Shown: piece by piece, positions 2,125 to 53,402 of the stretch | Numbering within the stretch: the first letter of the stretch is position 1 | Layout: each line of letters starts with the position of its first letter | Source of the DNA: a virus | Taxonomy: Duplodnaviria; Caudoviricetes | DNA: 64,000 nucleotides | Strand: one strand, 5' to 3' | IMG/VR virus record: IMGVR_UViG_3300026549_000074 | Coordinates: 6,500 to 70,499 of that record | Notes under the pieces: model-generated | What the model saw: the letters and a program-made list of their open reading frames with translations, nothing else | Database searches by the model: none | Told to the model about the DNA's origin: nothing | Made by a program: the position numbers and the translations under genes

Positions 2125-2636
2125 GTACAACTGATGAATGTGGCAATGTAATCAAGGATAGTACTGAGGATAATACTCAGGGTTATGTAAATGATAATAA
2201 AGGTTACTTTACATTACATAAGGACTATCTTGATGATATTGTTACTATGTGGATGAATGGTCTTAGAGCAGTAAGCATTAACAATACTACCAAGACTATT
2301 ACTTATGTATTTCTTAAAAATAAAGAGAAACCAAGTGAAGGTGTATTAAAGTTTACTTGGGATTTAGATCCAAATAAGATGTCTACTGAGACTGATGAGG
2401 ATATTAAGACTAACAGTCAATGGGATACTTCTATAGACTGGACTGATATTAAGACAGCAATCAAATCCAAAACTATAGATGACCAGTACTTCTGGACTGG
2501 TAATTCTAAGACTCCTATTGTGAAATATGATACCAGTATTCAAGGGTTATATTTCTATACTAGGGATGAGTTTAACAGACTGTCTTATAATAATCGTAAA
2601 GCCAAGTATGAATCTTGGTTCAATTCACTGGGGTAA
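2121..2636 (+). CDS. Hypothetical protein (171 aa)
   Basis: Open frame with ATGA overlap to nrdG; no recognised motif. Confidence 0.7.
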   Translation: MSTTDECGNVIKDSTEDNTQGYVNDNKGYFTLHKDYLDDIVTMWMNGLRAVSINNTTKTITYVFLKNKEKPSEGVLKFTWDLDPNKMSTETDEDIKTNSQWDTSIDWTDIKTAIKSKTIDDQYFWTGNSKTPIVKYDTSIQGLYFYTRDEFNRLSYNNRKAKYESWFNSLG

Positions 2637-2656
2637 TTTTCTTTCTTTTCTAAATA

Positions 2657-2686
2657 ATACCCCTGTTCAATTAAGAACAGGGGTAT
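2657..2686. terminator. Bidirectional terminator between convergent blocks
   Basis: ATACCCCTGTTC-AATTAA-GAACAGGGGTAT, a perfect 12-bp stem between convergent genes. Confidence 0.8.
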
Positions 2687-2692
2687 CCTTTC

Positions 2693-5600
2693 TTAATTAA
2701 GTCCCATATTTACTAAACTCATAGTAGGGATATTATCAAGATTATCTAATGCACCATCACCTGGTAATTTAATTCTTCTAGCAATAGCATCAGAACTAAT
2801 CATACTATCAAATATAGTAGGAAGTTTACCACCAATAACAGCACCTAATAATCCTGCATACCCTAAAGAACCAAGCATTGATAAAGCATGATTCTTAAAG
2901 CCATTCCATATAGTTTTTTGAATTCCAATGAAATATCTACTGAAACAGAAGATACCCATTCTATCAAGATAATCTATAAGCTGAGGTTCAGGAATATTGT
3001 AATTAATGAATAAATCATCAGCTTTCTTTATAAACTCATTCATGTCTAATTCCTTGCCATCTTTCTGAGCTTGATCCTGCATATGCTTATAAAGAGCATA
3101 TCTGGCTGCAAAATCATTGGAAGTAGCAATTTCCATAGATAAGTTATAAAGATTAGATCCTTTAACTGAAAATATATTCTTAACTCTTGGATCATTAACT
3201 ATAGAAGTTATAGGTGATATACCAATACTTTCAGCTACTCTTACTGATAAAGGTTTCTGATAATCAGTAGTAAATGCAGCTGTAGCATTATATAAACCAG
3301 CCTTAAACAGATCTATAGCAGGATTAGCAGCTATTGTTCTTACAATCTGTTCCCTATAAGCATTAAGTTTATTAAACTTAGCCTGATACTGAGGATCCTT
3401 CTTATCTAATGACATAATGTCATAATTATTAATCTGTTGTTGTTTAAGCCAATATCTATATTCCTCTATTGCTTTTCTACCATCATTCATATAACGAACT
3501 GCATCTTTTACAGTTAAACCACCTAATGAATGAAGTACAGAAAGATTAGAATAAACATTAATTAAAGAAGGTTTAAGCATCTTAACTACAATCATATTTT
3601 TATTGAATTGTGTTAATTTCTGCAGGAAATCTTCTATTGTTAATGACCATTTATGCCCAAGAATAAATCCAAGGGTATCTATAAAGAAATTCTCACTAGC
3701 TGATTGCATAGCTTTCTTTTCAGCCCAATTTGCAAATGAGAATCTTTCTTTACCAAATACATAATCAATATATTTAGTTTCTACAGGGAATCCCTTATTC
3801 TTTAATTCTGGATCATTCTGTATCATATTCTTAATTGTATCAGGTAAGAATTTATACATAGGATCAGATTCATCTTTAATAAACTTAAACTTTTTACCAG
3901 TCTTATTTTCCTTGTAATATTTAAGAAGTGCTTCTGCACAATTTTTATTGATTTCATCTGATTTAGCTCTTTCAGTAATCATACCTGCATAATTACCCAT
4001 AGCCATATTAATATCAGAATAATTACCACTATTCAGATAAGTTTCTTTGGTTTGTTCATTAAGCTCTACATCAATAGCAATAATCTGACCATTAGCTCCA
4101 AATCTAGGAACATAATTAGTATATTTATTAGTGCCTATCTTAACAGTACCATTACCTGCATTTATCTGGTTCAGAACCTTCTGGAACATTTCAGCCTGAT
4201 CATCAGGACTTAATCTCCCATACATAAAGTCTTCACCATAGATATTAAGCTGGTTATTCTTACCATGAACAAAATTTCTAGCTGCTTTAGAGAATAAACC
4301 CGGAGTATCAGGTACATAATTATGGTGAGCTACATTAATCCAAACCATCTTATGACCATTGATATTTTCTACAGGTATATCTTTAATTCTGTTATATCCA
4401 ATAGCAGTCCATCTGGATAAATCTTCAAGAGCTACTAATCTTACCTTCTTATCAGAATCAGAGCTAGGGAACAGCAGACTCTTAGGTACATTTCTTATAG
4501 CCATTTCATGGCTATCCCATACATTACTGGATTCAGATCTTCTTAATGCTAACTCTAAACCAGCTAATTTCTTAATTAACTCATCACCAGTATTACCCTC
4601 TTTAGTTTTAGCTTTAACTACTTTTTGATAAAGATCTTTAATAGAAGATTTATTATTATTAATAGAATCATCTAAAGCTTTAAGAGTTACATAATTATCA
4701 ATAACAGATACTAAATCATCACCAGTAGCTAATTCAGTATTAGGAGTACTTGTACCAAATTTAGCAGCTATCTGATAAGCATTAGCATATCTTAATCCAC
4801 CAGGATTAGATCCAGTCTTAAGGTATTCAACCATATCATTAGCTCTTGCCAACATCCAAGGATCCTTAATCTGATTTTTAAGCTTAGCTAATTCAACCTT
4901 CCTATCAGTATTCTTTGGATCAAGGAATTTAACAATATCATCAGATGAATATCTCTGAGCCAATGCACTTAAATCATATCTAAGAATAACAGTACTAAGA
5001 TCTTGTCTTATCTTAGTATCAGTAATTCCATAGCTATTAAGTAATTCATTAACTGAGTCATTTATAGATCCAATAGCTACACCCTTAGCAGAATCTAATT
5101 GATTTCTATATTTATAACCACAAAGAATATATTGTAAATTATCCTTGGTTACTCCTTTGGCTTGTTCAATAAGATCATGTACTAAACCATCTTCTTTAGA
5201 ACTAATAAGATGGAATACTTTATCAAGCACATCTTCATAAGAAGGCATAGCAGTAAGCTGTTTATCTACCTTGGATAATAAGGATGTCTTTAAGTTAGAT
5301 AACTCAGGATTAATAGTTTCTGCAAACTCATTTCTAAGCCTGGAAGCACTATTATTTCTAATAAAATTCTTTCTGGCTTCTTGCATATCCTGAGTAATAG
5401 CAATACTACTCTTAAAATATCCTAATACTTTATTAACTGCTAAATTCTTTTCATCAGCTGCATGATGGGTAAAGAAATAAATAGCCTTATTAATGAATCC
5501 AGTAGTTCTGTTTGCAACAGCTTTCTTAAACTCAGCATTAATTTTATTATTTTTACTATTTAATGCTTTAATCATAAATCTATTAGTTAAAGCATAAGCT

Positions 5601-8600
5601 AAGAATTCCTGAACAGAATCTGCATTAACATCACTGAATACATAATCATAAATACGCTGAGCTTCATCATGAGTAGCACCAGCTTTTTCAAGATCTTCAG
5701 GAGTAATTATTTTACTTGCTAAATGCCATAATCTTGTAGCTTCATCTAACTGATGAGGAGTCATTAACTTAAATAAATTATGGGAGATTTCATGCATTAT
5801 AATTTCAGATCTGCATACTCCTGCTCTAGCCATAATACCTCTATTAGCAGTAACAACAGCAGCTCTTTCCATATTATCTGGATTATTAAAATCCAGAATA
5901 GATAATGCATCATCAGCCTTAATATTATTCATATTAATGAAATGCATCTGCATATTTGTCTGTCTTAATAAATTAGCTATATTTTTAAGATAAGAGATTT
6001 CTTCTTCAGTTACATGACCATTATCAATATCCCATTGGATATCTTCCATAACTTCCTGGAACATCTGATTACCATTCTTGGCTTGATAAATATCAAGATT
6101 GTCCATTATTTGTTGAACAGGGATACCAGATTTAGATTCATTAGAGTATCTGCTCCTACTTATTTTATTATTATAATAATTCTGGGTTCTTGTATAAGCA
6201 GTCTTACCTCCTAACTTTCTACCCTCTTCTACTGCATTTCTGACTGTTTGAGTACCTAAACCAGATGTATTAAGAGGTCTGGTGTTGTAACGCTCAGCAG
6301 TTTTCTTATCTACTCTGCCAGTATATTGCTGTACTAATCTAAAGATATCATGATCTCCCATGCTCATATCGTTCTTGGTATTCATTAAATTACCAAGAGA
6401 ATTAGACATAAGGTTAATATGATTAGTACTATCTATAGCAGTACCAGCAAAATCAGCAGTTAAATGAGCTATGAGATACTGAGCATAACTTAAACGAGCA
6501 TTACCTTGTGCATTCTTTCCAGAACTCTCAAATATATTAAACCCTTTCTTAAGTACATTAAATCTATAGAATCCATTAGCATCTGCAGAATCTATAGGAG
6601 TACCATTCATATCTACTGATCCTTTACCTTTAGCTACCATTTCTGGATTAGGTAAAGAATTAGTATCTACATAGCTAAAATCTTCAAGTAATCGATTATA
6701 CTTCCATTCATATTTACCAGTGTGCTCATTACGGCGAATATACTTCATGATTTCCTGTCTGGAAGTAAGGTTTTGAGCACTTAAATTCATGAAATATATT
6801 TTGCCCTTATGAATTCCATTTAATGTTTTATTAGTATAGTTTATGGCTACAAAAGGATCATCTTTAATATCATTACGTACTTGTTCGCTATATAACTCAG
6901 ATACCCTACTAAGAGTATCTTCTCCAAGGCTTTTTACTAATTGAGCATTAAAGTATTCACCCTCAGGAAGTACTGCTTTACCATTAACTATAAATACAGG
7001 AATAATAGTAACTTCACTATTAACATTATGATCACCAAGATTGCCAAAATCTTTAGGGTTAGAATCATGATCAGCAATACCATCACCAGGTGTAAACCTA
7101 CTTCTTTGTATTAAAGATTCAGCATTACTATGAGTAAAACCAATATTAAGATCGGTATTAATAGTTGCATGTAACCACATGTGGTTAGGAATGGTGTCAT
7201 ATTTATTGCTTAAATCTCTGGAGTGAATAGCATTAACATCAGTACGGTATGTAAGACCAAATACACGTGTAGATGTATCAATGTCTTCATTCTCTACATC
7301 CTCTTCAAGTAAATTATATTGTTCATTAAGATTAAGCTTATAGATATTACTAGGGTCAATCTTATCTCTACTGGATATAGATCTCTTTAATTCTGCACCA
7401 GCAGGTCTGGAATCAGATTTATCAGCAAAAGCTATATCAAGAATATGACCTGTTGCATCTTGAGTAGGTATAGCAAATGTATCACTATTATAAGTGGATG
7501 TATTGGTAATACCTGGTTTACCCCAGAAATCAATGGAATCAATAAGATTCTGATCTACTGAATCACCTAAAGGTGCAAATACATTAACATGCAGTGAGCA
7601 TCTACTGTCAGAAACAGTAAGTTTATCAGCAATAAGAGTGTCAAGAGTTCTTAATGATCCAGTCTCTCCATGAACTACAGGAGTTTCAGGAATATAAATA
7701 ACATCTGTAATACCCTTAAGTTCAGTATCTTTTAAGGCCATTACTCTCTGATACATTAAGAAATCAGTAGTGTTATGACCCTCAATAACAATAGCTCCTT
7801 GAGCTTTACCATAAGTATCAATAATATATTTATCAATATATTTATGAATAATCTCAGTAGGAGTTTTAGCTAAACCATAAGCATCATTACTTGATTTATT
7901 TAATATATTTAAGAAACTGAAAGGTAAATCAGTTGATTTAATTAAATAAACAGATTGAGTAGTATTCTTAAGGTCTTCTAATGCTTCAATCGCAGACTTA
8001 TTAACATCTTCATTAATAGATGCTTTAGAATCTGTAATAGCAGCATTTATATAACCTAATTTAATGTCATTAAAGTTATCAGTAACAGATTTTCCAGATA
8101 ACTTATGAAGTACTGCATTAACAATATGTGCTCTGGTTATAGAACTAACCTTGCCATTGACAGAATTATACAGATCTAAGAAAACTTCACTGGTTAAGTT
8201 ATAAAGATCTGAACCAGCAAGCATATGGATACTGAATGATTCCTGTAAATAACCAGAAACAGCATTCCATAAATGTTCATTATCTTTATTATTTATATCA
8301 GAATCCCATGTATTAAATGCATGGGCAGTAGTCTTATATAACTCTGTTCTCATAGCCTCTGATATATCATCAGATTGCTTGGTTTTATCGTCTAACTTGT
8401 TATATGCTTTTTCTTGTGCATTAATAGCACCTCTTAAAGCATCAAATAAAGGACCTCTGAAATCATCATCATGCTCTCTTACTTCCTGAGTAACTTTATC
8501 AAATAATTTTTTATATCTGTCTAATAATTTTTTATTAGTTTTTTTATTCTGACCAATAGAATTAGATAAGTAATTCCATAACTCAGCAACAGAAGTATTC

Positions 8601-11600
8601 CTATCAAATAACCCATTAGCTTTTAGAGGTGTCTTAAGCTCAACTTTAACATTCTTAGTATCCTGAGATGTAGCTATAGCATTAATCATTTCTTTAGCTA
8701 AAGGATTCTGACTATATTTATTCTTCAGGCGATTAAAAATAGCATAATTAAGACCTGTATCAGTATCATCTCCTGTTACATGTTCATAACTATAAGTTAT
8801 TTGTACTGGATCGTTAGCAGTACCAGTGCCAGATACTTCATATTTAAGATGGTTTCTAGCACATAATACTTGGATCATCTTATCTACTAATTTAGGATTT
8901 TCAGCAAGATCTATAGTAGATTCAGCAGCACCAAAATATCCATTAAATTTAAGATGTTTAATATAGCCTTTTCTAACTGCTGTAAGAATTTGAATATGAT
9001 TAAAATCATACTCTATTCCATCAGCAGCTAACTTATCCCTAAATGCTTCTAAATCTTCTATAGAAGTCATGTTGCTTACACCATAATCAGTGAAAGTCTG
9101 CTGGAGTAAATCCTGAAAATGCTGATCTTTATCCTTAGCATAAGGAGACATTACCTCTGCATTATATGCTTGAATAGCATTATCTAAATTCTTAGCTAAT
9201 TCTAATCTTGCATTCTGTAAGAACATAACCTCCATATGAGCTGTATTTGCAATACCAAGAGTATTAGCAAATGAACCAGCACCTAATATCATTGCATCAA
9301 ATACATCAATAAATGCAGTCTTTGCATATATATGGGTATAGTTAGCTATACGAGCATCAAGAGTATGGTTATGAATAGGAGGTGCAGCAGATGAACCAGA
9401 CTTTATTGTACTGCCCTGACTGCTATAACTAAGACCTTTAGTCTTTTCATTTTCAGGATTAGTAGTATCTATTGGATAATATGTTGTATTTCTGGATTCA
9501 TTAATATCCTGAATAATTGAATGAATAGCAGGTATCATCTTAACCAGAAGAGCACTCTTAATAGATCCAGCTTGGAATGATCCATTGCCATCAGCAAAGG
9601 TCATATTAAGCTTATCTTCTACTCTTCTGATTATTGCATCATAATCCTCAGTAGTAAGGATATCAAGATTACCTTCTGCATAACCTTTCTTTTCACGAAC
9701 TACTTCATAGATAGCAGTAACCATCATATTCTCAGCCATAGCAGAAAGTAATCCTGCTGTCTGACCGATATATTTGGAATCTTCTCTGGATTTACCCATT
9801 ACTCTATCTGCTATCTTAGCCATAGATGATCCAACAGAACCACGGATAAATTCATAAATACCAGTATTTTCTTGCTGATTATGCCTGAAGTCTGTTGCTA
9901 CTTTTCTCATAGACCATGCCTTTTGGCATAAGTCTGCTAACCTATCAGATGATATAGGATGATTTTGAGGATCCATACCTGAATAAGTAATCTGAGATCC
10001 AACTCTTCTGGCTACAACTTTAATTACCTGATCAGGATTATAAAGTGCACCAGAAGGCTCAATTTCAAATGCAAATGTATTATTTTCTGATAAATCTAAT
10101 CCAGTAGTAACAAATGTATTGAAAGTATATGTCGATAAATCAGCTGATGCTATTTCCTTATTAAGTAATTCAAATGCTACTTCTACTACTTTACCACTTA
10201 ATGCTTTAAGGCCAGCACCATAATTATATGGAGTCATTAAATGCTTTGAGTTATCACGTGAGTAAATAAGTTCTGCTAATCTATCTGCGGCATCTAATTT
10301 ATTTAATTTTTCTACTTCTGATTTCTTTTCACCAAATAAAGAAAGTAATGCTACTATTCTATTAAAATTCTTTTCAGAATCAGGATTATCACTTCTTACA
10401 AGATTTTCCATAGCTGCTCTTAAATAATAATGGAACAGATATGTACCTCTATCACCTAATGACAGATATAGATCCAGATTAGCATCACGATTACCCAGTG
10501 CATGCCTGCGATTAACATCACTTCTTAATTGGTCAAAGTTATCAAACATGAACGTACCAGTCATGTTAAAAATCTTATATCTTGGATCAGCTGCATCAGT
10601 AGTCTCAAGCATCTCATATGCAGTAAGATAATCAAACAGACCATTACTTATACCAGGTCCTGAAGTTAAACCATCTCCTTCATGAACCATTCTGAAATAA
10701 ATATGATCAAAAGTACCATTAGTTTGATCATTTATAATCTTTTTAACCTCAGTCATATGGGCTTTATCTAATGTTACTCTGGTAGAATTGTATGCATTAG
10801 GGGATACATTATTTTGCTTTAATTGATCAAGATTCTGATCTCTATATGCTCTAAGAATTTGAGCATATTTCTTAAATATTTTAGGATTCCTTTTATATGC
10901 AGCTACTAATTCACGAAGAATAGGGATACTATTAGAATTACTAGTCCAGTCTCCACCAAGAATTCCATACCCCTTAGTAGGAATATTAGAACCTGCTTGT
11001 GAAGCATCCATAGTAGCTACTTTACATTTATTTTTGAAATACGTTTCATCTAATGCGAATTTTCCATCAGAATCAGTAGGTATTAAAGTATCTTCTTTAC
11101 CATCAAAATAATCAGAAACATGTTGAATAAATTCTTCAAATTCAGAATCTTCAAATAATGTTATTAAAGATCCAGCTAATGAGTAATCATTACCATCTTT
11201 ATCTTCATTTCTCCAATAGTTCATTCTATAAACTTTATCAGGAGATAATCCAAGATTAGCTGCCATTATAGACATCCAGCCATATACCTTGGTTTCATCT
11301 GCAAACATTTCAGCAAATGAATCTCCAAAAAGTTCAGATGCTATTACAAGATCACCATTATCATTCCTGAATAATGGTTTGAAGATACATCTATTACCTT
11401 TCTGTTCACGGTTAGTAATTATTGAACCACATGTGTATATACGATTATTAATCGTATTTCTATGATAGAAATAAACTTTATCCCATGCAGTAAGTTTAAT
11501 TTTTTTATTATCATTTCTTCTGGTTACTTCAAAAGTAAAATCAGCATCAGGTTGATTGTTATATAATTCATAAAGATCATTAAATCTAGATTGAATATCT

Positions 11601-47854: not shown

Positions 47855-47953
47855 ATTCAGATCTAACGGGCTTAATAGAATTTTCATAATTTAGTATAGA
47901 TGCAATGTAAGGTAATTAATTGATAAATTAATTAACATCCCCCCCCCATGATT

Positions 47954-47967
47954 TAATCTGACGTATG
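47954..47967 (+). promoter_or_regulatory. Early-region repeated motif, copy 1
   Basis: TAATCTGACGTATG; matches TAATYTGWCGWATG. Confidence 0.4.
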
Positions 47968-47997
47968 GAATCAAAGACAACCAAACAGGAGGAAAAT

Positions 47998-48222
47998 ATG
48001 GCTATGTCAATTGATTGGGTTGCAGCTCTTGGCGGAGCTGTAGTTGGCTGGGTTGCGTCTGGCAAGGTTGACGAGATGGAGACCAAGTTCGCAACGACAG
48101 TTGCGGCTGGTTCAGCAGCTGGTGTCAAGCAGGCCATGAAGGCCCAGGCCAAAAAGATGGCCAAGAAGGTCAAGGCCAAAAAGAGAGCCGGTTCCAGTAA
48201 CGGAAACGGTGAGGACCAGTGA
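47998..48222 (+). CDS. First early gene, small membrane-anchored basic protein (N4 gp1-like position)
   Basis: AGGAGG RBS; hydrophobic N-terminus, Lys/Ala-rich C-terminus; GC-rich codons. Confidence 0.7.
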   Translation: MAMSIDWVAALGGAVVGWVASGKVDEMETKFATTVAAGSAAGVKQAMKAQAKKMAKKVKAKKRAGSSNGNGEDQ

Positions 48223-48301
48223 GGATAAGAAAACTTATCCTTATTGGGTAATAGCCACTATTGTTATAGTGGCTATACTGGTGCTCTGGTTACTTATGTA
48301 A
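48209..48301 (+). CDS. Possible single-TM peptide (30 aa)
   Basis: GTG start, ...YPYWVIATIVIVAILVLWLLM*; weak RBS; followed by a terminator. Confidence 0.35.
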   Translation: MRTSEDKKTYPYWVIATIVIVAILVLWLLM

Positions 48302-48309
48302 CTGGAGCT

Positions 48310-48345
48310 AGTGCATCATCCGAAAGGATGGTGCATTTATTTTTT
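48310..48345 (+). terminator. Rho-independent terminator
   Basis: AGTGCATCATCC-GAAA-GGATGGTGCATT plus T-rich tail. Confidence 0.75.
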
Positions 48346-48399
48346 ATTTATTTTCATTTTTTGTCAGATTCAATCGTGAACAGGATACTCCTGAAACGG

Positions 48400-48413
48400 T
48401 AATTTGACGAATG
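48400..48413 (+). promoter_or_regulatory. Early-region repeated motif, copy 2
   Basis: TAATTTGACGAATG, preceded by the hairpin CAGGA-TAC-TCCTG (48381-48393). Confidence 0.5.
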
Positions 48414-48472
48414 GTGGCAACAACGAGACAACGTAGGGTTGTCAAGTGAGCTACCGCTATGGAGAAATAATT

Positions 48473-48712
48473 ATGGCCTTTGATACTAATAAGGAAAAGA
48501 GAGTCCATTTCATTAATCTCATGAAGTCTTCTAAAGACTTCTGTGGGGAGCATCTTGCTCCTATCTCTGAGAGTGATGTAGTTATGCTTCTGTCCCATAA
48601 AGATATTCTTGATGGGTTGAATGAGAAACTCAAGGGTACAGGATTTACTCTTCAGGTTAACTGGTCTGATGACCAGGGGCAGAGTTGGAAGCAGTACCCT
48701 CAGTCGAGGTAG
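48473..48712 (+). CDS. Early hypothetical protein (79 aa)
   Basis: GGAG RBS before ATG 48473. Confidence 0.7.
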   Translation: MAFDTNKEKRVHFINLMKSSKDFCGEHLAPISESDVVMLLSHKDILDGLNEKLKGTGFTLQVNWSDDQGQSWKQYPQSR

Positions 48713-48732
48713 TTTTAAGTTTTAGTTTTAGC

Positions 48733-48790
48733 AGCTAGGTACAAGACTTCAGATTTGATCTGAATCTTGTATCTAGCTTTTATTTTTTTG
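48733..48790 (+). terminator. Long terminator hairpin
   Basis: AGCTAGGTACAAGA...TCTTGTATCTAGCT plus T run. Confidence 0.7.
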
Positions 48791-48846
48791 TTTATTTTTA
48801 TAGCTTCAATTATGAACAAAGTTCTCCCTTTTAGCTCATATGTTTC

Positions 48847-48860
48847 TAATTTGTCGAATG
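48847..48860 (+). promoter_or_regulatory. Early-region repeated motif, copy 3
   Basis: TAATTTGTCGAATG, preceded by ATGTTTC; upstream of the RNAP gene. Confidence 0.5.
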
Positions 48861-48917
48861 ATATGAACAAGCAATGTTCAATTCCGAACATTGTATTCCT
48901 ATAAGAATGGAGGAATT

Positions 48918-50426
48918 ATGGGAAGAGAATACGTCTATAACAAAGCAGCTAAGACTGCTTATCCAAGGGTTCTTGAGATTGTGAAGGAGATTAAGAATCT
49001 CAAGGTGTCTTACTCAGGTCTGTTCAAGCATGTTACTGATGAGTATTTTGAGAAGTACAACGACAGTTGGACCATTATCAATGGTAATTCCATTGATACC
49101 AATGAGTTGAAGTTCTTCCAGTGCATGATATTTCAGGCACTTGAGGATTGCGGATTTGACTATCATCAGATTCAGTTTGCTGATGAAACCAAGGATTCAG
49201 AACTTAAGAATCAGACTATTACCTACAAGAAGCATAGACTTCTTGGGGACTACAAGCATTGGGTGAATAACCCTTGTGATGTAGAATCTTACAGATTATC
49301 TGGATATGGTATAGATTGGAGAGGTAGATTATATCCTATTGATAACATCTATGATTTCCAAAACTTTAAGGCACTTAGAGCTATGGGAGATAGATTCGAT
49401 TGCACTGAATATGATATGCGTGCTAGTGGTATTCGTATACTTGGATGTTTGCTTAGAGATTCAGGTTTAATTCTTGATTTGATTGACCCAGCTAAAGGTG
49501 ATGTTTACCACAATAAGAAAATAACATTTAAGGATGGTGAGATTCTCAAGTATGGTCTGATGGAGTACATCTATGGCTTTGGCCGTGATGAATTCGGTCA
49601 GTATATCTTAGATGATAAGAGAGAAAGACCTTATAATCTGAATGGTGTTCAGGTACCAGGTGACTGGAAAGCAGTTGATGAACTTCAGAACCAGATAATC
49701 TCTGAGTTCAACAAAGATGATAAAGAAATCTATTACAAGCTTCCGGACGGTTTCATAGTTGACTTTAAGAAGTATCATAAGATTACTATTAATCTCAATG
49801 AGAATTGGTGTCGTAATGGTCTCTATGCTAATGAATATAAGATTCCTGAATTAGAGAAAGATGAAAGGAATATCTACTCTATTGCAGTTGATGGATTAGA
49901 CAGAACCAAGAGAAACTGGCACATGAAGGGTGTAGTAGCATGCATCATTCATGCATGGGATGCTTGGCTGTTACGTGAAGTATATCGTGAGTTTCATGAT
50001 AACTTCAAAGGGTCAATCCATGACTGCTACATATTAAAAGATATCAGTCTTGATAAGATTAATAGCTTTGTATCTAACAAGTTAGCTTGGATATATAAGA
50101 ATGCAGATACTCTGATGGATGAGATTAACAAGACATTTGGTATCAATATCAAGCCAAAAGAATTTGATGAAGATATCTATCAGAAGATTCAGCAGTCTGA
50201 GTCAGTAAAGATAGAGAATCAGGGAATTACTGGTAAAGTGAATAGTCAGACATACTTTGAATATGAGAAGGCATTCTCAGACTTCTTTGAAGGTTATGAC
50301 TGGTTGATTAGAACCAGAATGATACCTGAAGATATCTATACTAGATTCTTAGATGCTTATAAGAAGCTTGAGTGTCCGAATACACTTGTTGATGAATACA
50401 TCAGAAACAAGACGGTAACTAAGTGA
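48918..50426 (+). CDS. Single-chain T7/N4-RNAPII-type RNA polymerase (~502 aa)
   Basis: DWRGRLY, motif A YDMRASG, GDVY, motif B K-x7-YG (KYGLMEYIYG), IIHAWD and motif C SIHDCY, all in one ORF. GGAGG RBS before ATG 48918. Confidence 0.85.
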   Translation: MGREYVYNKAAKTAYPRVLEIVKEIKNLKVSYSGLFKHVTDEYFEKYNDSWTIINGNSIDTNELKFFQCMIFQALEDCGFDYHQIQFADETKDSELKNQTITYKKHRLLGDYKHWVNNPCDVESYRLSGYGIDWRGRLYPIDNIYDFQNFKALRAMGDRFDCTEYDMRASGIRILGCLLRDSGLILDLIDPAKGDVYHNKKITFKDGEILKYGLMEYIYGFGRDEFGQYILDDKRERPYNLNGVQVPGDWKAVDELQNQIISEFNKDDKEIYYKLPDGFIVDFKKYHKITINLNENWCRNGLYANEYKIPELEKDERNIYSIAVDGLDRTKRNWHMKGVVACIIHAWDAWLLREVYREFHDNFKGSIHDCYILKDISLDKINSFVSNKLAWIYKNADTLMDEINKTFGINIKPKEFDEDIYQKIQQSESVKIENQGITGKVNSQTYFEYEKAFSDFFEGYDWLIRTRMIPEDIYTRFLDAYKKLECPNTLVDEYIRNKTVTK

Positions 50427-50572
50427 TGGATTTAAGATACTGAATAACGAGATACTTAGATACAGAAATAAACGGGTAGTGAACGTAGATCTAGAAATCT
50501 ATAGTTGAGATCTATATCGTATGTTCCTACCCTGGAAGTAGGAGATGAGTTAGCACTCATCTCCTATGTTCC

Positions 50573-50586
50573 TAATTTGACGAATG
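50573..50586 (+). promoter_or_regulatory. Early-region repeated motif, copy 4
   Basis: TAATTTGACGAATG, preceded by ATGTTCC and the 11-bp hairpin AGGAGATGAGT-TAGC-ACTCATCTCCT. Confidence 0.5.
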
Positions 50587-50611
50587 AGTGTTTATAACTT
50601 ATGGAGGTAAA

Positions 50612-50977
50612 ATGAACATTCATAATATGACTCCTCATGCAATTGACTTTGTAATTGATGGAGTAAAGGTATCTTTCCCTTCTGAAGGAGTGATTCGTGC
50701 AGCTCAGAAAGATGAGCAGGTTGATGAGGTTGTAACAGACCTCAACCTTGGTAACTCATCTGCTGGATTCACTATTCCTGTGTTTAAGTCTACCTTTGGT
50801 GCTCCTGAAGGGGTACCTGAAGAGATTGACCCGAATGGTATCTATGTAGTTTCCATGCTGGCATTCCAGAGCCTTAAGGCTACTGGATACAATATGGATA
50901 AGTACTACATTGTTTCAGGAACCATCAGGGATGAACAGGGTAAGATTGTAGGATGCAAGGGGCTTGCAAAAGCTTAA
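50612..50977 (+). CDS. Possible Crn4-like ring nuclease / anti-defence protein
   Basis: N-terminal NMTPH, central GAPEGVPE...IYVVS, C-terminal RDEQGKIVGCKGL. Family recognised from memory only. GGAGG RBS. Confidence 0.5.
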   Translation: MNIHNMTPHAIDFVIDGVKVSFPSEGVIRAAQKDEQVDEVVTDLNLGNSSAGFTIPVFKSTFGAPEGVPEEIDPNGIYVVSMLAFQSLKATGYNMDKYYIVSGTIRDEQGKIVGCKGLAKA

Positions 50978-51004
50978 TTGCTGATGTTCCTACAATGATT
51001 AGTT

Positions 51005-51045
51005 AAGCCAAGCTTTATGCTTGGCTTTTTTGTTTTTTTTTATTT
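51005..51045 (+). terminator. Rho-independent terminator
   Basis: AAGCCAAGC-TTTAT-GCTTGGCTT plus long T run. Confidence 0.8.
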
Positions 51046-51112
51046 TTTTATTTTTTTCGCTTTCAACTGAGAACTTATGTTCCTAAAGTGAGTGAACAAC
51101 AGGAGAAATACT

Positions 51113-51334
51113 ATGGTACATTCTATTTGCATTACTTTTAACTATGACAGGTCTAATAATACAGGGTCTTGGGTATGGGTTAATAACCTTAGTAAGTGCT
51201 GGGAATTTATAGTTAATGATACTAGGTATTACACTATTCCTAAGACTAAAGGTTATAAAGCATTAATCCATGAGTGTAAGAAGTATTGGGATGATACTGC
51301 ATGGATTAAGAATCTTCATGAGAATAGAAGGTAA
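51113..51334 (+). CDS. Hypothetical protein (73 aa)
   Basis: AGGAG RBS before ATG 51113. Confidence 0.65.
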   Translation: MVHSICITFNYDRSNNTGSWVWVNNLSKCWEFIVNDTRYYTIPKTKGYKALIHECKKYWDDTAWIKNLHENRR

Positions 51335-52902: not shown

Positions 52903-53184
52903 ATGAAACATGAATTATTTAAGATTGAAGCAGATTATAATAAAAGAGAAGAGGAATACTATACTGAAAATGCTTCTCAATATCTGAATAATTATCTTGA
53001 AGATGCTCTTATTAAAGCTTTTGAAAATTATAAAAAAGAACATCCCAACTATTGGAATATCTATAGAAAATATCTTAGAGAAGAAGATACACATAAAGAT
53101 GATAATTATAAAGAATCAATTTTAAGTTTTAGTCTAAATCGCTATGTCACTGAAGATCATAAAAATGATTGGGAGGATTTATGA
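52903..53184 (+). CDS. Hypothetical protein (93 aa)
   Basis: GAGG RBS, open frame. Confidence 0.65.
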   Translation: MKHELFKIEADYNKREEEYYTENASQYLNNYLEDALIKAFENYKKEHPNYWNIYRKYLREEDTHKDDNYKESILSFSLNRYVTEDHKNDWEDL

Positions 53185-53402
53185 TTATAGAAGATTATAT
53201 AGAACCCATAATTCAAGATAAAGCAAATTATGGTATTGCTTATGAAAAGGTTCGTGATCTTATAGAACCTATAATAATTACTACTGTTATGGAAATTACT
53301 AATCGTAATCAATCAGAATCAGCAAGACTTTTAGGTATTAATAGAGGAACATTTGTTAAAAAACTTAAAAAATATGGATTATATGAAGTTTATTATTCAT
53401 AA
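53181..53402 (+). CDS. fis: Fis-like nucleoid/transcription factor
   Basis: VMEITNRNQSESARLLGINRGTFVKKLKKYGL aligns with the E. coli Fis C-terminus [32 protein letters not shown]; GGAGG RBS. Confidence 0.8.
   Translation: MIIEDYIEPIIQDKANYGIAYEKVRDLIEPIIITTVMEITNRNQSESARLLGINRGTFVKKLKKYGLYEVYYS

Follow-up and report, generated by a model that had tools for sequence, protein, structure and literature searches.

The question raised by this locus is whether a phage can transcribe its middle genes with one small RNA polymerase (RNAP) chain in place of the two-subunit RNA polymerase II (RNAPII) of N4-like phages. According to a 2015 review, the RNAPII of every phage that carries a virion RNAP is heterodimeric or has its gp16 split further (PMC4496689). 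The DNA analysed here, called the window, is a stretch of 64,000 nucleotides (bases 6500–70499) of the 70,499-bp IMG/VR record IMGVR_UViG_3300026549_000074, which is estimated to be 95% complete. An initial annotation of the window had proposed that one open reading frame (ORF) of about 502 amino acids (aa) is a miniature single-chain T7-type RNAP that replaces the split RNAPII. The results obtained here point with good probability to a functional, cofactor-assisted middle-gene RNA polymerase, a reduced form of the T7/N4 RNAPII type. The gene and the parts of its product are located as follows.

48918..50426, plus strand: gene of the single-chain T7-family RNA polymerase, 502 aa, from the ORF list, stop codon included.
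48918..49232, plus strand: N-terminal region, aa 1–105, three predicted helices and a low-confidence linker in the secondary structure of the model.
49314..49328, plus strand: DWRGR (T/DxxGR), aa 133–137, invariant in the family and aligned with DxRGR of 42 T7-like and N4 RNAP1 pieces.
49413..49445, plus strand: motif A, DMRASGIRILG, aa 166–176, with D166 at nt 49413 and G171 at the position of T7 G542, invariant.
49548..49577, plus strand: motif B, K211...Y219-G220, with G207 at the position of T7 R627, from the family and T7-like/N4 alignments.
49743..49961, plus strand: PDGF (aa 276–279), a variable specificity-loop-like insert and H345xxD348 (T7 H784/D787), from the motif positions.
50019..50024, plus strand: motif C, H368-D369, with the second catalytic Asp, invariant, HD in 51/51 aligned rows.
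50217..50423, plus strand: C-terminal helical extension, aa 434–502, past the end of T7 RNAP and N4 RNAP2, with helices at 446–497 in the model.

The open frame around the gene comprises 519 codons. The ATG at 48918, which follows GGAGGA (48909–48914) after 3 nt, gives the product of 502 aa, and the alternative TTG start at 48891 would add just 9 aa. Compared with two relatives of 94% and 90% identity, the gene had dN/dS values of 0.096 and 0.107, respectively. The gene is under purifying selection, and since dN/dS is about 0.10, it was considered a functional gene. Against the PHROGs, the protein gave weak but specific matches to phrog_2051, the N4 RNAP2 family (E 1.4e-6, a partial match at profile positions 133–260 of 401), and to phrog_414, the T7 RNAP family (E 1e-5).

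A word-indexed search of 5.8 billion proteins retrieved 15 family clusters, all of 502–545 aa, and the clusters formed two main groups, one about 90% and the other about 52% identical. Twelve sequences were aligned (alignment A1), and the catalytic motifs were unchanged at an overall identity of merely 51–54%. The invariant positions were D133-W-R-G-R137, D166-M-R-A-S-G-I-R-I-L-G176, K211, Y219, G220, P276-D-G, H345, D348, H368, and D369. The F279 of PDGF was found in eight of the 12 sequences, with W in the remainder. The RNAP motifs are not a chance occurrence, because they are invariant across 12 sequences at this degree of divergence. The single ORF with DWRGR at 49314, motif A at 49413, and motifs B and C, as described in the initial annotation, agreed with our coordinates and with the alignment.

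Few other relatives were recovered. One further genome in IMG/VR, a 72.6-kb contig, encoded the RNAP with 94% identity. A phmmer search of 1.84 billion representatives added two short matches only, P0016 and P0017, and detected neither split nor fused relatives of the family. The two short proteins were considered as split forms and ruled out, one being a truncated fragment and the other lying on a chimeric 1.3-kb contig. The concern that fused RNAPs of about 500 aa might already be common in described phages was not borne out, as tblastn of the RNAP against 50,697 described phage records gave no match. Neither the single protein nor the family profile retrieved anything beyond chance matches from PDB chain sequences, and a search of the ESM Atlas with the RNAP was uninformative.

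The relationship to the N4 enzyme was examined by profile comparison. An N4 RNAP2 profile of 65 sequences was built from IMG/VR loci, and hhalign aligned it with the RNAP family over 372 columns (Prob 91%, E 1e-6). A single N4 RNAP2 sequence aligned from motif A to HxxD in BLAST and hhalign, and the RNAP1 profile matched the family around DxxGR only (hhalign). A MAFFT alignment of full-length T7, RNAP1, and RNAP2 sequences (A3) was rejected, as DxxGR was misaligned and RNAP1 was stacked on RNAP2. Alignment A4 consisted of the family and trimmed pieces (7 T7-like, 44 RNAP2, and 35 RNAP1), and its motif columns were checked one by one. In A4, the D, S, and G of motif A were aligned in 51/51 T7-like and RNAP2 rows, and the PDxF, H, and D of the RNAP in 50–51 of the 51 rows.

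With no input but the 12 family sequences, AlphaFold gave a poor model (pLDDT 50.8), which was discarded. The model computed from the hybrid alignment A4 had a pLDDT of 73.3, with 85–97 in the core and low values at residues 300–335, within the insert between PDGF and HxxD. The best Foldseek matches to this model were T7 RNAP, chain B of N4 RNAPII (6dt7_B), and mitochondrial RNAPs. The structural superposition on T7 RNAP and N4 RNAPII, which had been suggested as a check, was run with VIA-align and gave Z of 13–14.7 over 250–268 residues to T7, mitochondrial, and N4 RNAPs, with model residues 106–431 placed on T7 298–883. Family-A DNA polymerases came next, with Z of about 11. Based on the profile comparison and the structure model, the 502-aa protein is assigned to the T7 family, and in the model it has the palm and fingers of the right-hand fold of T7 RNAP.

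The small size of the protein was traced to particular segments. The lengths, in residues for this RNAP, T7, and N4, respectively, were 132, 420, and 235 from the N-terminus to DxxGR; 33, 116, and 108 from DxxGR to motif A (in N4 across the gp15/gp16 boundary); 45, 94, and 63 from motif A to motif B; 65, 99, and 61 from motif B to PDGF; 69, 54, and 46 from PDGF to HxxD; 23, 27, and 96 from HxxD to motif C; and 134, 72, and 63 from motif C to the end. The spacing of 33 residues between DxxGR and motif A, compared with 116 in T7, had been reported before, and the recount gave the same values. The segment deleted between DxxGR and motif A is, by this sequence comparison, the one in which N4 splits into gp15 and gp16, and the 83 missing residues presumably represent the palm insertion of T7, which they match in size and place.

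The two ends of the protein differed from those of T7 RNAP. Residues 1–105 occupy the place of the 420-residue N-terminal domain plus thumb of T7. This region had no sequence relatives beyond the family (phmmer, hhalign), and the structural alignments mostly began only at model residues 103–110. The T7 N-terminal domain, which has no counterpart in this RNAP, contains an AT-rich recognition loop and an intercalating hairpin. At the other end, the T7 (...ILESD) and N4 (...VLETE) tails aligned to QQSES at residues 425–429, so that aa 434–502 are considered an extension. VIA-align found no structural match for the RNAP past residues 431–435.

The comparison with known polymerases was consistent with a reduced N4 RNAPII type. 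The N4 RNAPII was the best profile match (Prob 91%), and its chain B had a structural Z of 13.5. Both enzymes are of the T7 family, lie in an early region of a phage with a giant virion RNAP, carry the same motif set, and have a truncated N-terminal domain. However, N4 RNAPII consists of gp15 (269 aa) and gp16 (404 aa), 673 aa in total (PDB 6DT7), whereas the enzyme here is one chain of 502 aa. In addition, the N4-type RNAP2 of 80 IMG/VR loci (L012–L091) has an insert of about 70 residues between HxxD and motif C (96 residues in N4), which this RNAP lacks (23 residues). It further differs from N4 RNAPII in the loss of the motif-B Arg, in the C-terminal extension of 69 aa, and in the lack of a gp2 homologue and of a phrog_2166 match. 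With T7 RNAP (883 aa; Z 13.5), the DWRGR is identical, motifs A, B, and C, PDGF, and H784/D787 align, and the spacing from HxxD to motif C is T7-like (23 versus 27). On the other hand, this RNAP is 381 residues shorter than the T7 enzyme, without the palm insertion, with shorter fingers, and with a C-terminus that is not free.

Single-chain enzymes of the N4 type do exist. In all 80 of the 80 N4-like IMG/VR loci, RNAP2 was a separate gene of about 400 aa, and most had a separate upstream RNAP1 ORF (68 after filtering). When N4 gp15 was used as a query on longer proteins, two metagenomic RNAPs of the single-chain N4 type were obtained, namely P0138 with 648 aa and P0139 with 588 aa, and each passed PF00940. 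Like the RNAP here, they are one-piece enzymes set among N4-like early genes. The spacing from DxxGR to motif A in P0138 was canonical (104 residues), and both proteins keep the motif-B Arg. Compared with described phages, P0138 found two separate RNAP genes in every case among the matches listed. The metagenomic contig L176:305-3142 carries a homologue of N4 gp2 (PF26984) and, about 500 nt further downstream, the P0138 gene. The present family is about 100–150 aa shorter than these one-piece enzymes and is invisible to searches with gp15. Other short enzymes are those of phiEcoM-GJ1 (648 aa), Lactococcus phage KSY1 gp014 (610 aa), and Vibrio phage phiV141 (673 aa), which share the fold class (Foldseek E 5e-4 to 7e-2) and are also far below the length of T7 RNAP, yet are at least 100 aa longer than this RNAP and have no sequence similarity to it in the tblastn search of phage records. 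In BFVD, the phage proteins annotated as RNAP had 599–673 aa, apart from a handful that were shorter (329 and 499 aa) and of uncertain completeness.

The earlier proposal that a single chain replaces the split RNAPII was thus supported, with qualifications. The gene encodes one T7-family chain in an early N4-type module and is far shorter than 673 or 883 aa, but the fusion is not unique. Fused N4-type enzymes are known, if rare, but none of about 500 aa with such deletions is known. The novelty therefore lies in the small size and the divergence, not in the fusion, because P0139 and P0138 (588 and 648 aa) already represent fused N4-type RNAPs. That the protein replaces RNAPII, and that it might be active alone, is suggested by its position and motifs.

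The gene content around the RNAP was in agreement with the N4 layout. A homologue of the virion RNAP was found as an uninterrupted ORF of 5833 aa (window 2693–20194, minus strand), the last ~1000 residues of which matched phrog_2206, the N4 virion RNAP (profile positions 2364–3355, E 2e-67). The first 5000 residues gave no PHROG at E<=0.001, and the ORF exceeds N4 gp50 by about 2300 aa. The terminase and structural (late) genes lie on the minus strand as well. Small early genes and the RNAP, which stands behind a shared early motif, open the plus-strand module at about 47.4 kb, followed by an N4-type primase of 722 aa (phrog_2135, E 1e-199). The module also holds a ligase-like protein and AAA proteins and runs over the record ends into the DNA polymerase. 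The primase matched 472 Schitoviridae records with at most 39% identity, N4-like throughout among the matches listed. The phage, uncultured and from the cattle gut, has on gene content the N4 layout (Schitoviridae in the wide sense), and its lineage is a deep, undescribed branch, since the primase identity does not exceed 39%. Directly before the primase, an ORF of 73 aa (window 53181–53402, plus strand) carried a Fis-type HTH_8 domain (Pfam E 7e-9) and is a possible phage transcription regulator.

No second subunit gene had been recognised initially, and this was confirmed at the level of hidden Markov models (HMMs) over the whole 70,499-bp record. For phrog_2166, the N4 RNAP1 family, nothing was found at E<=10, and PF00940 and phrog_2051 matched the RNAP ORF only. 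Within the 70.5-kb record, the HMM searches thus left no second T7-like piece.

The RNAP gene lies in a segment that differs strongly between close relatives. The features of this segment are listed below.

47950..51330, no strand assigned: divergent early-gene cassette, 65–71% nucleotide identity or unalignable against the sister phages, flanks 94–97% (blastn).
48473..48712, plus strand: upstream 79-aa ORF, candidate cofactor, from the positional homologue family.
48847..48860, plus strand: copy of TAATTTGTCGAATG, 57 nt before the ATG, a candidate promoter for transcription of the RNAP unit.

In the terminase, the primase, and a dozen other genes, the sister contigs L006 and L007 had 94–99.6% protein identity to the window. 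The corresponding values were 52% for the RNAP, 18–25% for the upstream small ORF, and 66% for the downstream 121-aa gene. The upstream small ORF was kept in position at 7/7 loci examined. In alignment A6, the 79-aa family was 66–77% identical where the RNAP was 89–94% identical, and 18–29% where the RNAP was 52–54%. The 79-aa protein had no recognisable family in PHROG or Pfam. Since its divergence parallels that of the RNAP allele, it is the best candidate for a cofactor, although linkage by itself could also account for this. The 121-aa gene (window 50612–50977, plus strand), directly after the RNAP, matched phrog_30542 (function unknown; E 4e-15) and has its own motif copy ahead.

The 14-nt early motif TAATYTGWCGWATG occurred in four copies on the plus strand (47954, 48400, 48847, and 50573), compared with 0.16 expected, and each copy preceded the start of an early gene, among them the RNAP gene, by 12–70 nt. 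The first copy coincides with the left breakpoint of the cassette. The motif was conserved in L006, L007, and L010, including phages with the other RNAP allele. It gives no evidence of recognition by this RNAP, because it is unchanged across the RNAP alleles.

The sequencing runs that hold this stretch were almost all labelled as cattle or sheep gut. For one cattle-gut sample, two metatranscriptome runs gave a contig depth of 100–600 over 48.0–60.0 kb, compared with 5–17 over the late genes (40.0–47.3 kb). The depth in a DNA run was flat (about 113–150) over both regions, the tRNA bin aside. These depths indicate presence in the RNA library and a contrast between the strand modules, and do not amount to transcript mapping, because they come from assembled contigs. 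The RNA depth jumped more than 10-fold at about 47.4–48.0 kb, where the late genes of the minus strand give way to the early and replication genes of the plus strand. A peak at 52.0–52.7 kb over the tRNA region was present in all runs and probably reflects shared tRNA sequence. Furthermore, an identical 2.2-kb RNA-library contig covers the RNAP gene and ends at 48862, two bases past the motif, which is a weak hint only.

Taken together, the results would make the protein the non-virion DNA-dependent RNA polymerase that the phage itself encodes, equivalent to N4 RNAPII but in one chain of 502 residues. It retains the catalytic core of the T7 family in palm and fingers: the metal-binding D166 and D369, K211 and Y219 of the O-helix, the ribose-gate G171, the 2'-OH-sensing H345, and DxxGR. 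Missing are about 290 residues at the N-terminus, the part that in T7 binds and melts the promoter, together with about 83 residues between DxxGR and motif A (the palm insertion region and N4 split site) and about 80 residues of the fingers, and a helical tail of 69 residues past the T7 end has been gained. The RNAP is probably made early, from its own transcription unit, and would then transcribe the replication (middle) genes on the same strand. Because the promoter-binding elements are lacking, it would most likely depend on DNA that is melted or single-stranded and on a small protein that recruits it. N4 RNAPII binds single-stranded DNA only and is recruited by gp2 (PMC4496689), and the LUZ7 protein Drc plays the same role (PMC7145618). 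For recruitment, the co-varying upstream 79-aa protein would be the best candidate.

Several observations weigh against such a polymerase. Pfam gave no family at E<=1 for the 502-aa protein, and PF00940 in the genome search reached 13.5 bits on the RNAP ORF against a gathering cut-off of 22. Neither a genome search with phrog_4099 nor Pfam on nine early ORFs revealed a gp2/Drc homologue, and a crude k-mer search of the plus-strand intergenic regions found no shared middle-promoter motif above chance. The depths of the RNA-library contigs are coarse, with possible DNA carry-over. The fold match is not independent of sequence homology and serves as corroboration, not as independent proof, because T7 and N4 sequences were part of the alignment from which the model was made. 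The position of the T7 C-terminus is internal in the 502-aa protein, and the C-terminus of T7 RNAP must be free for activity. Moreover, the Arg at the head of motif B (RxxxKxxxxxxxYG; T7 R627), which in T7 contacts the NTP phosphates, was absent from 13/13 family members. The replacement by Gly noted initially was found in 12 of the 13, with Asp in P0015 (the residue of P0009 was taken from alignment A1). The Arg was present in 49/54 T7-like and N4 RNAP2-like rows and in the two single-chain N4-type proteins.

The G207 in place of this Arg, the 69-residue extension that buries the C-terminal 'foot', and the missing Pfam-level match would all be expected of a polymerase-like protein with lost or altered chemistry, either an inactive scaffold or an enzyme with another substrate preference. 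This explanation is nevertheless very improbable, as the catalytic Asp pair, K211, Y219, G171, H345, and DxxGR have stayed invariant while the sequences diverged by 50%, and dN/dS is 0.10. Besides the virion enzyme, no other polymerase fit for middle transcription was recognisable in the genome, and the invariant motif-A residues R168 and R173, absent in T7, might compensate for the lost Arg. There is an equally slim chance that the enzyme makes primers or origin transcripts for DNA replication instead of mRNA. T7 RNAP and mitochondrial RNAP also make primers or transcripts at origins, the gene lies directly upstream of the replication module (primase, ligase-like, AAA proteins, and DNA polymerase), and a minimal enzyme without promoter elements might suit single-stranded DNA. 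However, an N4-type primase of 722 aa is encoded by the phage itself, the RNA-library depth was high over the whole plus-strand module, and the homologous N4 enzyme is the middle-gene transcriptase (PMC4496689).

A tentative but appreciable possibility is that the protein is the catalytic subunit of a two-part enzyme, in which an obligatory small early partner, most likely the 79-aa product, supplies the role of the T7 N-terminal domain or gp15. The term single-chain would then cover the T7-homologous part only. The absence of an N-terminal promoter-binding domain is consistent with such a partner, as are the position of the 79-aa ORF, kept in seven loci and diverging in parallel with the RNAP allele, and the fact that a single divergent cassette holds the RNAP together with its neighbours in genomes otherwise 94–99% identical. 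The N4 and LUZ7 RNAPII also bind small cofactors (PMC4496689, PMC7145618). On the other hand, the co-divergence may reflect linkage in one recombining segment, since the downstream 121-aa gene diverges too (66%), and the 79-aa protein belongs to no recognisable family. It is rather unlikely that the protein is the smallest natural self-sufficient T7-family RNAP, working without the N-terminal domain, the palm insertion, the O-helix Arg, and a free C-terminus, and forming with the 79-aa partner an exchangeable cassette of at least two deeply divergent alleles in one phage species, possibly under pressure from host defence that targets the polymerase. If this is true, NTPs would be bound and the template engaged in a different way.

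For the family, an enzyme of this size would move the lower size limit of T7-family RNAPs from about 600–670 to about 500 residues, and would reveal which parts can be deleted, namely the N-terminal domain, the palm insertion at the N4 split site, and part of the fingers. If active, the 502-aa protein would be one of the smallest T7-family enzymes and a compact scaffold for engineering, although its biotechnological use is doubtful if, like N4 RNAPII, it needs single-stranded DNA and a cofactor. Two alleles of 52% identity in near-identical phages are unusual for a core transcription enzyme, and the driver is worth study. The finding bears on why N4-like phages split RNAPII and on the minimal needs for transcription by this fold.

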